Below, piece by piece: positions 46,095 through 53,712 of a DNA stretch of 64,000 nt. Position numbers and translations under genes: made by a program. Position 1 is the stretch's first letter. Every line of letters starts with the position of its first letter. The stretch spans positions 32,001 to 96,000 of the forward strand of contig CAYLZE010000003.1 in NCBI GenBank assembly GCA_964388035.1. Direction: 5' to 3'. Source of the stretch: an uncultured archaeon (GTDB taxonomy: Archaea > Asgardarchaeota > Lokiarchaeia > Sigyniarchaeales > SOKP01). The notes beneath the pieces are model-generated. The model saw only the letters and a list, made by a program, of their open reading frames with translations, ran no database searches and was not told the origin of the DNA.

Positions 46095-46604
46095 TTACCA
46101 TCGAGATTTTTCAATTAATTCTACTAATTTTGATTTTAAATCTTCAATCCCTTCTCCCGTTTTAGCAGAAGTTTTTAGCCATTGAACGGGACGTTCTTTA
46201 ATCAGAGGCAATTTTAACGTTCCTCGAGCTTTAACATAATTTGCCTGAGCATCTTCCAAGTCCATTTTATGAAAACATACCATCAAAGGAATACCACGAG
46301 TATTCAAGTTATTTACAACGTTATCTAACTCCTTCTTTGCTTCATCAAATCGAATTGCATCAGAAGTATCTAAAACAAACAAGAAAATTGAAGTTCCTGG
46401 AAAACCTGAGGACCAACTATCTCTATATGATTTTTGTCCTGGAGCATCCCATACTACACATTCAATAGATTTAATTATCATTTGGTCAATATTAAACGCT
46501 CTTGTTGCTTCTGGATTTTCCAAAAAGCTATCATCCTTAATATACTTGCATAAAGTGGTTTTTCCTGCATTTTCAAGTCCAAATAAAAATATTTTATCAT
46601 CCAT
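46095..46604 (-). CDS. Arf-like small GTPase
   Basis: G1 GLENAGKT, G2 T (ATRAF), G3 WDAPGQ, G4 HKMD, G5 SAK. Confidence 0.92.
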   Translation of the reverse strand: MDDKIFLFGLENAGKTTLCKYIKDDSFLENPEATRAFNIDQMIIKSIECVVWDAPGQKSYRDSWSSGFPGTSIFLFVLDTSDAIRFDEAKKELDNVVNNLNTRGIPLMVCFHKMDLEDAQANYVKARGTLKLPLIKERPVQWLKTSAKTGEGIEDLKSKLVELIEKSRW

Positions 46605-50349: not shown

Positions 50350-50598
50350 ATGACTGAAAATGAAGAACTGGAGTTTGATGAAGAATTAGATACACGAGGT
50401 TTATTTTGCCCAGAACCTTTGTTTGAGGTGCGAAATCTTTCTGAAACTCTTGAAGTAGGACAATGTCTCAAGGTCTTAGCTGATGATCCCGCTGCGGAAG
50501 AAGATTTTAAAAGATGGGCGAAAAGAACAGATACTGAAATTATGAAATTTATAAAAGAAGGAGACGATCTAGTCTTTTACTTTAAGAAGAGAAAGTAA
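50350..50598 (+). CDS. tusA: TusA-family sulfur carrier
   Basis: LDTRGLFCPEP, VLADDPAA..D...W. Confidence 0.92.
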   Translation: MTENEELEFDEELDTRGLFCPEPLFEVRNLSETLEVGQCLKVLADDPAAEEDFKRWAKRTDTEIMKFIKEGDDLVFYFKKRK

Positions 50599-50697
50599 TT
50601 ACGGTGAAAAAATAATGAAAATTATGACAAGCTTTTTAAAATTTGTTTATTCCATCCATTTCTTAGATCGATATATTTTAAAGGGTGAATAATAAAG

Positions 50698-51891
50698 ATG
50701 AATGTCTATTTAGATTATCAAGCAGCAAAACCCGTGGATGAAAGGGTTTTGAATGAAATGTTGCCTTTTTTCAGAGAAACATACGCTAATCCAGCGAGTC
50801 TGCATTGTGAAGGGGATATAGCAACTACTGCTTTAGACAATGCAAGAAAAAAGGTGGCTTCTTTCATTAATGCTCCAGATCCTGAAAGCATTATCTTTAC
50901 TTCTGGGGCTACTGAATCAAATAATCTTGCATTAATTGGTGGAGCATTAAGAAATAAAAGAAAAGGAAATCATATCATCATTTCAGAAATAGAACATATT
51001 TCGATCTTAAATATTGCTAAATATTTAGAAAAAGAAGGTTTTAGGATAAGCAAAGTACCAGTAGATCAATATGGAATTGTAAAACTTGAAAAATTAAAGC
51101 AATTAATTACGAATGATACAATTTTAATCTCAGTAGCAGGGGCTAGTAATGAAGTGGGTTCTTTGCAACCCATAAAAGAAATTAGCGAAATTGCTTCTGA
51201 GAAGAAAATTCTATTTCATTCGGATGCTTTAGCTCTAGAACCAACAGTTCCAATTGATGTACAGAAAGTTCCTTTCGACTTACTAACTCTTTCTTCTAAT
51301 GATATTTATGGACCGAGAGGAGTAGGTGCATTATATTTAAAAAAAGGCCAGAGGGTGAATCCTGTATTGATTGGAGGAGGACAAGAAGAGGGGATGAGAT
51401 CGGGTTCCCATGATATGCCGGGGATAGTAGGATTTGGTAAAGCTGCTGAAATCATGACGAAAGAAATTGATGGCGAGGCGAGACATTTGAAAGGTTTCAG
51501 AGATCAACTAATTGATGGCGTTTTAAAAGGTATACCCAATTCGCATCTTAATGGGCATCCAGAAAAAAGAGTACCGCATAATGCACATTTCAGATTTGAT
51601 TTTATAGAAGGAGAGTCATTAATATTAGGATTAAAGGATGAATTTGTCGCAGCAGCCACTGGGTCGGCTTGTTCCTCAAAGACACTCGAACCTTCCCACA
51701 CGCTAATTGCAATGGGATTATTGCATGAAGAGGCTCATGGCAGTTTAGAACTTACTCTGGGCCGATATACGGAACAATCTGATATTGATAAATTAATAAG
51801 AGTATTACCAGGAATTGTAAAAAGATTACGAATCCTCTCGCCTCTCACCCCCCCTGATTTATTAAAATATTATAATGAGGTGAAAAAATAA
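50698..51891 (+). CDS. iscS: IscS-like cysteine desulfurase homolog (PLP Lys replaced by Asp)
   Basis: YLDY, YANPAS.H, FTSGATESNN, IEH, SSNDIYGPRG, GGGQE, GSACSS. Confidence 0.92.
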   Translation: MNVYLDYQAAKPVDERVLNEMLPFFRETYANPASLHCEGDIATTALDNARKKVASFINAPDPESIIFTSGATESNNLALIGGALRNKRKGNHIIISEIEHISILNIAKYLEKEGFRISKVPVDQYGIVKLEKLKQLITNDTILISVAGASNEVGSLQPIKEISEIASEKKILFHSDALALEPTVPIDVQKVPFDLLTLSSNDIYGPRGVGALYLKKGQRVNPVLIGGGQEEGMRSGSHDMPGIVGFGKAAEIMTKEIDGEARHLKGFRDQLIDGVLKGIPNSHLNGHPEKRVPHNAHFRFDFIEGESLILGLKDEFVAAATGSACSSKTLEPSHTLIAMGLLHEEAHGSLELTLGRYTEQSDIDKLIRVLPGIVKRLRILSPLTPPDLLKYYNEVKK

Positions 51892-51893
51892 GT

Positions 51894-52694
51894 ATGAATA
51901 TGAAATCTACCCAATATTCGGATAAAGTAATGGAACATTTTCGGAACCCACGCAATGTTGGAGTAATAGAAAATCCCGATGGTTATGGTAAAGTAGGAAA
52001 TCCAGTATGTGGGGATATCATGGAGATGTTCATAAAAGTAGGAAAGAACGATAAAGGAGAAGACATTATTGAAGATATTAAATTTAGAACCTTTGGTTGT
52101 GGTAGCGCGGTTGCAACCTCATCAATGACCACGGAAATGGCAATTGGAATGACTTTAGATGATGCATATAAGATAACTCGCGCGGATGTCGCAGAAGAAC
52201 TCGAGGGACTACCACCGATTAAAATGCATTGTTCTAATTTAGCAGCAGATGCGTTGAAAGCAGCAATTGATAATTATCGGACAGGGAAAGAATCTACGAT
52301 AGTAGCTCCCGTCTCGTGCCAAACTACCGAATTACATGTAATTTTGGGTTTGGATGAATTTCTGGGAAAAGGAGTGTATAATGAAGTAAAAAATTTAGAT
52401 GAATTTAAAGACAAGCGAGTCTTGGTAGTTGATACGGGAGATGAATCTGTTAAGACTGCTGTTGAATTAACCGAACACACGGGACGTGTCATTTTAATGA
52501 CATCGGGTACTAACCTTCCAGGAAACGAAGATCTACAGAAAAAATTAAAACGCTCAGACGTAAAAATTTTGTACCAATCAGAATTAATGGAAGTCCAAGG
52601 AACAAATGATATTGAAAAGGTCATCATCCATGATTTGGATGAAGATGAGCAATATGAATTATTCATAGATTCTCTGATAATATTTCAAAAATAA
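51894..52694 (+). CDS. iscU: IscU/NifU-N Fe-S scaffold fused to a thioredoxin-reductase-like C-terminal domain
   Basis: YSDKVMEHF.NPRNVG, NPVCGD, FGCGS, KMHCSNLA; C-terminal DEFLGKGV...FKDKRVLVVDTGD resembles the TrxB NADPH domain. Confidence 0.9.
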   Translation: MNMKSTQYSDKVMEHFRNPRNVGVIENPDGYGKVGNPVCGDIMEMFIKVGKNDKGEDIIEDIKFRTFGCGSAVATSSMTTEMAIGMTLDDAYKITRADVAEELEGLPPIKMHCSNLAADALKAAIDNYRTGKESTIVAPVSCQTTELHVILGLDEFLGKGVYNEVKNLDEFKDKRVLVVDTGDESVKTAVELTEHTGRVILMTSGTNLPGNEDLQKKLKRSDVKILYQSELMEVQGTNDIEKVIIHDLDEDEQYELFIDSLIIFQK

Positions 52695-52863: not shown

Positions 52864-53712
52864 ATGATAATATGGATAATCGATAGCACATCGGGAGTAA
52901 AATTGCTCTATTGGGCGAATAGGTCCGTTATAAATATTGATGAAGATCTAATCTCGGGATTATTAACTGCATTTCATCGTTTTTCTGTAGTTGAATTTCA
53001 ACAAAATTTAGAATCCATAGAAATGGGAGGATTAAAGTGGATTTATCAACAAGAACCCGAATATAACTTGATGTTCGTAGCTGCTGATAATAAAGATATC
53101 AAAACCGAGATTTTAACAGCTAGATTATATATAATTAATAAAATATTCTTGGATAAATATAAGGATTTATTCAAAACAAGGGGTTCTAGTTGGGAGGGAA
53201 ATTTTAATGTGTTTACCCCCTTTATAGATATTTTGGAATCTTACAATGCTCAATGGGACGAAACAAATGATATAAACCAAGTGGCTGAAATTTATGATAT
53301 TTTGCGGATTTTCCAACAGATTTTTATTATTTTAGGAAATTTATTACGCAATAGAATGTATCAAAAATCCCAAAATCGAATTTTAAGCGAAATAGAGAAA
53401 GATTTTGGTAAATTAATGAAAAATGAGAAATTTAATGAGCAATTTAATAAGCAAAACGTGTCGTTTTCAAAAATAAATTGGTTTGATCTTGAGGACATTA
53501 ACCTAATCAAAACTAATAAATTTTTACTTTTAGATTTTTTAAAATCTTTATTAGTCCTTATTATAAATGCTTTTAGAAAAGTAAAAGGCAATGAATATTG
53601 TTTTAAATATTTTAGTGAAGAGAAAATTTTTCTATATTTATATCAAAATATGAATTTAATTAAAGATCTTAACTTGGACTTATTTTTTCTAAAAAACTTC
53701 TTATTATTATAA
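52864..53712 (+). CDS. Longin-like domain protein with helical C-terminal extension
   Basis: MIIWIIDSTSGVKLLY...DEDLISGLLTAF..F...ESIEMGG. Confidence 0.7.
   Translation: MIIWIIDSTSGVKLLYWANRSVINIDEDLISGLLTAFHRFSVVEFQQNLESIEMGGLKWIYQQEPEYNLMFVAADNKDIKTEILTARLYIINKIFLDKYKDLFKTRGSSWEGNFNVFTPFIDILESYNAQWDETNDINQVAEIYDILRIFQQIFIILGNLLRNRMYQKSQNRILSEIEKDFGKLMKNEKFNEQFNKQNVSFSKINWFDLEDINLIKTNKFLLLDFLKSLLVLIINAFRKVKGNEYCFKYFSEEKIFLYLYQNMNLIKDLNLDLFFLKNFLLL

Follow-up and report, generated by a model that had tools for sequence, protein, structure and literature searches.

A lysine-less IscS encoded between tusA and a fused iscU in a Lokiarchaeia genome: a candidate cysteine-independent unit for iron-sulfur cluster assembly

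We analysed a 64,000-nucleotide stretch of DNA from an uncultured Sigyniarchaeales archaeon (Asgardarchaeota, Lokiarchaeia; assembly GCA_964388035.1, contig CAYLZE010000003.1, positions 32,001 to 96,000; hereafter the window), in which tusA, iscS and iscU genes follow one another. The IscS lacks the lysine that normally carries pyridoxal phosphate (PLP), and the IscU is fused to a domain derived from a reductase. The operon represents a real, widely conserved system of the inactive-IscS, minimal ISC kind. The reading that we favour, with a probability of about 0.55, is a cysteine-independent unit of the type of Archaeoglobus fulgidus IscS and Methanosarcina acetivorans IscS1, in which persulfide would be relayed from TusA to Cys325 of IscS and on to IscU, with the fused domain acting as a tether. 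A relay in this reverse direction is our best guess because the IscS is very probably inactive and because the link with tusA is specific to lysine-less IscS. The features of the operon are as follows:

50350-50598, + strand: tusA, sulfur carrier, 82 amino acids (aa), with a CPEP motif; Pfam PF01206, E 7e-18
50698-51891, + strand: iscS, lysine-less class I desulfurase paralogue, 397 aa; best PDB match 4EB5 (A. fulgidus IscS), E 8e-137
51894-52283, + strand: IscU/MisU scaffold domain, residues 1-130, with C39, D41, C69, H112, C113 and LPPIK; TIGR03419
52284-52334, + strand: flexible linker, residues 131-147; predicted local distance difference test (pLDDT) below 50 at 134-148; fairly conserved Cys142
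52335-52694, + strand: degenerate NAD(P)H (nicotinamide dinucleotide) domain of a CxxC-less flavoprotein of the TrxB/ferredoxin-NADP+ reductase (FNR) type, residues 148-266; PDB matches 2ZBW and 5XHU

The last three features make up a single open reading frame (ORF; 51894-52694, + strand, 266 aa). All three genes are co-oriented, with 99 bp between tusA and iscS and 2 bp between iscS and iscU, and their arrangement is not due to chance, since the order is kept across the window's taxonomic order and beyond. TusA scores 64.7 bits against PF01206 (cut-off 28.6) and 46 bits against the E. coli-type equivalog, under its cut-off of 78. An original prediction, made from the sequence of the window, had described co-oriented tusA (with CPxP), iscS and iscU, the latter two 2 bp apart, an IscS without the PLP lysine that keeps its Cys loop, and an IscU with an extra TrxB-like domain of ~120 aa. 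ORF calls and Pfam matches confirmed the first of these, alignment to Escherichia coli IscS the second (Asp202 and Cys325), and the extra domain proved to be 118 aa long with a match to TIGR01292 (E 1.8e-14).

The window IscS is 42% identical to that of E. coli. Residues 199-202 read SSND in place of the SxHK of normal enzymes, so that Asp202 occupies the position of E. coli Lys206 and N201 that of H205, while A179 and E351 stand at the positions of the conserved PLP/substrate-site residues Q183 and R354 of E. coli. The TGSAC loop is kept, Cys325 aligning with E. coli Cys328, and so are the PLP-site residues H100, D176, T72 and S199. These positions were compared between 138 lysine-less and 113 normal IscS sequences. 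Gln183 is kept in 112/113 normal proteins and is Ala in 129/138 lysine-less ones; Arg354, taken to anchor the carboxylate of cysteine although a literature search gave no confirmation of that role, is kept in 111/113 normal proteins and is mostly Leu, Val, Gln or Glu in the lysine-less clade, which has also lost the Thr12-Thr13 pair. The loop Cys is present in all 138 lysine-less proteins, and the clade has made gains of its own (Arg299 in 137/138, Lys or Arg328 in 136/138, and His343), all carried by the window protein as R299, K328 and H343. Judged from these alignments, lysine-less IscS appears to have been rebuilt rather than to be decaying. Among the features of a class I cysteine desulfurase, the window protein lacks the PLP lysine and Q183/R354 and has the loop Cys; it has those of the A. 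fulgidus-type inactive IscS, namely Asp at the lysine position, the loop Cys and an adjacent iscU. The combined loss of K206, H205, Q183 and R354 makes it very probable that, as had been supposed, this IscS cannot desulfurate cysteine.

Lysine-less IscS proteins have been described before. The A. fulgidus protein shows no desulfurase activity, binds pyridoxamine phosphate (PMP) and provides its loop Cys as a ligand to a [2Fe-2S] cluster on IscU (PMC8918507, PMC7585200). Structures of A. fulgidus IscS2-IscU (4EB5, 4EB7, 4HVK; D199K variant, 4R5F) have the same SSND motif and Cys loop as the window protein; in the literature examined no sulfur carrier has been assigned to A. fulgidus IscS, whereas the window iscS adjoins tusA. 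IscS1 of M. acetivorans is also without the lysine and is encoded in a cluster of MA0810 (SirA(TusA)-like), MA0809 (DsrE), MA0808 (IscS1) and MA0807 (IscU1) (PMC7585200, Fig. S1), the SirA-like and DsrE genes being reported as of unknown function (PMC7585200). Like the window, this isc1 cluster has TusA-like and IscU genes around a lysine-less IscS; it differs in having dsrE, and its IscU1 is a 24-kDa protein. The claim that the system is novel was therefore overstated, as the lysine-less IscS and a sulfide route have been published (PMC8918507) and the cluster has been printed for M. acetivorans (PMC7585200). The dead enzyme and the gene cluster were already known. No paper interpreting the link of TusA/DsrE with lysine-less IscS and none describing an IscU-TrxB fusion turned up in a search covering mostly non-subscription journals.

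Two other systems offer comparison. MIS (MisS/MisU) is, like the window operon, a pair of IscS-like and IscU-like proteins without the chaperones or carriers of ISC operons (PMC13066941), but MisS is by definition active in cysteine desulfuration, whereas the window's is degenerate and comes with tusA attached and an extra domain on the scaffold. The window thus lacks the combination that defines MIS (active MisS, MisU and no accessory genes), and the likeness is at scaffold level only. The E. coli IscS-TusA and IscS-IscU complexes (3LVJ, 3LVL) comprise the same three protein families; there, however, IscS is active, sulfur passes from IscS to TusA, and tusA lies outside the isc operon region.

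A motif scan of GTDB genomes found at least 120 lysine-less loci, among those listed in Bathyarchaeia, Asgard lineages, Thermoplasmata, Methanosarcinales, Hadarchaea, Geoglobus, Deltaproteobacteria, Actinomycetota, WOR-3 and others, the usual gene order being tusA-(dsrE)-iscS-iscU. Linkage was counted for 88 lysine-less genes with enough upstream DNA, with 25 Asgard and 70 metagenomic normal iscS genes as controls. Either tusA or dsrE lies just upstream of 80/88 lysine-less genes (tusA in 76, dsrE in 58), compared with 0/25 and 0/70 of the normal genes (0/95 together); the tusA linkage seen in the window is thus conserved and specific to lysine-less IscS. On the other side, iscU adjoins lysine-less iscS in 71/90 cases. 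The carrier cysteines are invariant, that of the TusA motif in 130/130 proteins from the fetched loci and that of DsrE in 97/97. Within the window's order, tusA is found in 28/29 loci and dsrE in 25/29. The description of a three-gene operon therefore holds for the genes present, but the usual operon has a fourth, dsrE, which has been lost in the window. No dsrE remnant was found in the 99-bp gap between tusA and iscS, and a search of the rest of the genome with an operon DsrE as query gave no orthologue, more distant DsrE-family genes being present. In a Thorarchaeota-like family, the lysine-less motif occurs in 38/43 genomes and the normal motif in 6/43.

Some loci depart from, or extend, the usual order. 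In L106, L120 and L206, two of them named Thaumarchaeota/Nitrososphaerota, iscU precedes the lysine-less iscS and tusA is downstream or not seen. In two Methanocellales genomes (L115, L126), the operon also includes a standard CxxC TrxB/AhpF-like gene immediately 5' of tusA. A fusion of coenzyme A (CoA)-disulfide reductase, rhodanese and TusA follows directly downstream of the operon in 9/29 Loki loci; such a protein with a second rhodanese (~790 aa) is encoded at L070:7636-10011 (domains checked) and, in the source genome, on another contig than the operon (G000 C26:47564-49933). An apparent DsrE-IscS fusion in L091 was rejected, since half a DsrE is followed there by unrelated sequence, probably owing to a frameshift.

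The IscU domain has all the features of a scaffold: NifU_N spans residues 7-130 (E 3e-46), TIGR03419 (NifU_clost) scores 194 bits, above its cut-off, the LPP(V/I)K motif is present, and the ligands C39, D41, C69, H112 and C113 are invariant in 140 homologues. Its structural match to A. fulgidus IscU has 64% identity (Foldseek, 4EB5_C, root-mean-square deviation 0.9 Å), but the latter is a protein of 153 aa without the reductase-derived domain. AlphaFold gives two confident domains for the window fusion, with the disordered linker between them. Linkers are typically 17-19 aa long, and the position of Cys142 is Cys in 135/140 homologues, mostly from Loki genomes, and in 55/65 short fusions overall.

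The extra domain matches only positions 95-232 of TIGR01292, which correspond to the NAD(P)H domain of TrxB. In the PDB it is matched best by CxxC-less TrxB-like proteins and TrxB-type FNRs; with 2ZBW, 5XHU, 3AB1 and 3LZW it shares a CxxC-less segment after GKGVY. It has no CxxC and no flavin adenine dinucleotide (FAD) domain, the GGG of the nucleotide loop is replaced by D-T-G, and HRR is lost. None of the features of TrxB (FAD domain, CxxC, GxGxxA and HRR) is therefore present, nor does it have the FAD domain, glycine-rich loop and HRR of the TrxB-type (YumC-like) FNR family. At the first Gly of the nucleotide loop, the 35 short forms mostly have Asp, His or Tyr, whereas the 87 remaining rows of the tree set all have Gly. 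With neither FAD domain nor glycine loop nor HRR, the domain is unlikely to bind NAD(P)H.

Fusions of 443-448 aa, in which IscU carries a whole CxxC-less TrxB/FNR-like flavoprotein, occur in Methanoperedens, in a second Methanosarcinales genome and in one Asgard family; those of 444 aa retain their FAD domain and, for the most part, the glycine loop. These whole fusions (L114, L121, L188, L225-L227 and L385) encode a candidate electron donor for minimal iron-sulfur (Fe-S) systems. In the tree, the extra domain falls on the CxxC-less side (support 82/96), and the short forms are a single clade (100/100) with a long stem, outside the clade of full fusions. A joint clade of short forms and full fusions, a group defined after the tree had been seen, was not rejected (approximately unbiased test, P = 0.25), and the short-form profile gives its highest scores with full fusions (median 87 versus 68 and 61 bits); the IscU-domain tree gave no resolution. 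That the short domain is a truncated full IscU-flavoprotein fusion is neither shown nor rejected by these comparisons. The extra domain was matched in 38/40 genomes of the window's family and 39/43 of the Thorarchaeota-like family, the fusion also occurs in several bacteria, and an ESM Atlas cluster has 458 members, 66% of them bacterial. Among 71 iscU genes that follow a lysine-less iscS, 21 encode the short domain, 3 the whole flavoprotein and 47 show neither. The extra domain is hence optional for the system, and, of the three features that had been expected to occur together, tusA goes with lysine-less IscS and the fused domain does not regularly do so.

Complex prediction docked the isolated extra domain on the dimer of the lysine-less IscS with a score of 0.68, compared with 0.00 for the best of three controls; a score of 0.68 was reached by 58/80 solved complexes and 2/110 mismatched pairs, counts that are only roughly valid here. 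The docking runs agreed in at least 92% of contacts, with a partner pLDDT of at least 89. On the side of the domain, the predicted interface consists of R175, R198, K224, E241 and 254-259, where R175, R198, K224 and D259 are invariant and E241 and F257 near-invariant. On the side of IscS, it consists of 97, 121-124, 132, 135-136 and 337-343, the last segment closely following the Cys loop. I337, E97 and L342 rank 1, 3 and 10 among the 397 positions by how well they separate IscS proteins with fused partners from those with unfused ones (nominal P = 0.004). No solved complex of this kind was found in PDB searches, and to our knowledge there is none. The model thus predicts that the extra domain binds IscS. 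The domain had been suggested to dock an electron donor or a partner: a partner, IscS itself, is what the model proposes, and the NAD(P)H motifs of the domain are gone. Owing to the predicted binding and the lost motifs, 'tether' would describe the domain better than 'electron-donor dock'.

From these observations we infer which way sulfur flows, what donates it and where the electrons come from, as follows: (i) the IscS would carry out no cysteine desulfuration, which is strongly suggested by its residues, and would act as a platform whose Cys325 loop is mobile; (ii) sulfane sulfur would be loaded on TusA (in most relatives also on DsrE) and passed to Cys325, as the gene linkage suggests, in the reverse of the E. 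coli direction; (iii) by homology, Cys325 would hand the sulfur to IscU and could ligate the nascent [2Fe-2S] cluster; (iv) reduction of the persulfide would need electrons, which could come from an FNR-like or other reductase, presumably in trans here and from the whole FNR-like flavoprotein fused to IscU in some anaerobes; and (v) the leftover NAD(P)H domain, without nucleotide, is predicted to clamp IscU to IscS beside the Cys loop. On a single monomer of E. coli IscS the sites for TusA and IscU overlap and the two proteins compete for them (PMC11302665), so that a relay through one Cys loop would need partners to be exchanged. This would give the tether a purpose, since a second anchor keeps IscU attached: clamped IscU could make room for TusA at the active site and come back while still anchored to IscS.

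Several points weigh against such a relay. Gene order alone gives no direction of sulfur flow. Neither carrier is present at 8/88 lysine-less loci, and the window is among the few loci of its order without dsrE. Since the lysine-less genes look like members of a single family, the 80/88 count reflects a conserved operon and not that many separate events; shared ancestry likewise confounds the co-varying IscS surface. E. coli Trp45, which we take to be part of the TusA site, corresponds to Asp in 57/61 proteins of the lysine-less clade. No tether is seen in the 47/71 IscU proteins that show neither form of the domain. Finally, sulfide has been proposed as the direct sulfur source for A. fulgidus IscS-IscU (Pagnier et al., reviewed in PMC8918507). 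In keeping with that proposal, the IscS may be a ligand-only platform fed by free sulfide: Cys325 would only coordinate the cluster, and TusA and DsrE would be co-regulated with it in an accessory role, buffering or delivering sulfur without contact with IscS. A solved structure with the IscS Cys as ligand, the loci without carriers and the lack of the reductase domain at most lysine-less loci favour this account, but it leaves unexplained both the near-obligate, exclusive link with Cys-bearing carriers and the repeated fusion to a reductase, which would be needed for sulfane sulfur and not for sulfide; we consider it unlikely.

A somewhat smaller chance is given to an outward flow of sulfur, in which an Fe-S site on IscS-IscU would turn sulfide into sulfane sulfur and load TusA/DsrE for tRNA thiolation or molybdenum-cofactor synthesis, retaining the usual IscS to TusA direction without cysteine. 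TusA does normally take sulfur from IscS, the same linkage data are compatible with this flow, and a second, normal IscS is present in 36/40 genomes of the window's family; yet the literature searched holds no precedent, a normal class I IscS is missing from the source genome, which carries six further TusA-domain genes, and the ligand set of IscU is wholly canonical. It is very improbable that the IscS retains desulfurase activity by an unusual mechanism and is an ordinary hub with TusA and IscU as acceptors. The retained PLP-site residues, the absence of another canonical desulfurase from the source genome and a 2013 paper that named the A. fulgidus protein an 'unusual L-cysteine desulfurase' would fit this, but later work on that protein saw no activity and its D199K variant still carried PMP (PMC8918507), four catalytic-site residues have been lost together in the clade, and normal iscS is never beside tusA in the samples. 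As to the extra domain alone, it might instead be an adaptor that brings in ferredoxin or a separate flavoprotein as electron donor, or might still bind nucleotide, the modelled contact with IscS being incidental or wrong. Its origin in a family of electron-transfer flavoproteins, its acidity (25 D/E versus 14 K/R) and the existence of whole-enzyme IscU fusions speak for an adaptor; the loss of the first Gly and of HRR in the short forms, together with a predicted IscS interface that accounts for the invariant residues of the domain, makes it improbable.

The source genome (5.47 Mb, 33% GC, 96.7% complete; closest named homologues in Lokiarchaeota/Promethearchaeota) was searched for other sources of sulfur. 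It yielded neither a normal class I IscS nor a SufS match above the cut-off; a VC1184-type PLP protein has its lysine and lacks the Cys of the SufS motif. The lack of another canonical desulfurase holds for the source genome itself but not for its family, and the absence may reflect loss or an assembly gap. Because 36/40 family genomes also carry normal IscS, the lysine-less unit is usually a parallel system and not a replacement. The source genome also encodes a sufC-like gene with a 320-aa sufB-like gene (G000 C12:69120-70877, L041), a divergent SMS-like pair whose SufB-like member scores 65 bits against SmsB (cut-off 650). In several relatives (L082-L087) a second IscU-like gene lies after a metallo-beta-lactamase/beta-CASP-like gene (~760-840 aa) and before a heavy-metal ATPase-like gene; in the source genome, where this locus lies at G000 C12:55626-58506, the IscU-like copy has only two Cys. 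A further cluster (G000 C47:22931-27198) has two small membrane genes, tusA, and dsrE-like and selD-like genes identified by eye, and is possibly for thiosulfate or selenium uptake.

A scan for promoters and terminators, with a bacterial model, gave no excess over shuffled sequences (19 versus 15.9 +/- 3.4). Directly 3' of the operon, a 282-aa ORF without Pfam match (52864-53712, + strand), whose N-terminus may resemble longin, is not kept beside the operon in relatives. An Arf-family small GTPase gene (46095-46604, - strand; PF00025, E 4.5e-31), eukaryote-like and typical of Asgard archaea, is also found at the matching place in a genome of the same genus.

The operon supplies candidates for gaps stated in the literature: Fe-S assembly on A. 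fulgidus IscS-IscU without desulfurase activity was listed as open in a 2022 review (PMC8918507), and the electron donor of minimal Fe-S systems is listed as unknown (PMC13066941); TusA/DsrE would be the candidate sulfur donors and the FNR-like flavoprotein the candidate electron donor. The sulfide-fed route of M. acetivorans is left unexplained because deletion of both SufBC copies caused no sulfide-specific defect (PMC10500019), and in this organism, which has genetics, the sulfur source of lysine-less IscS systems becomes testable with MA0807-MA0810. The predicted tether, for its part, gives the fused domain a concrete and checkable role. More tentatively, the lysine-less IscS family of many anaerobic archaea and bacteria could represent a distinct Fe-S route, in which persulfides of TusA/DsrE would feed a dead desulfurase in reverse, a fused FNR-like flavoprotein would be the electron source in some lineages, and a stripped NAD(P)H domain would clamp IscU to IscS in Loki- and Thorarchaeota and some bacteria. 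Nearly all of the sampled Loki- and Thor-like genomes have the lysine-less system, which is therefore also relevant to Fe-S biology among the archaea related to eukaryotes.

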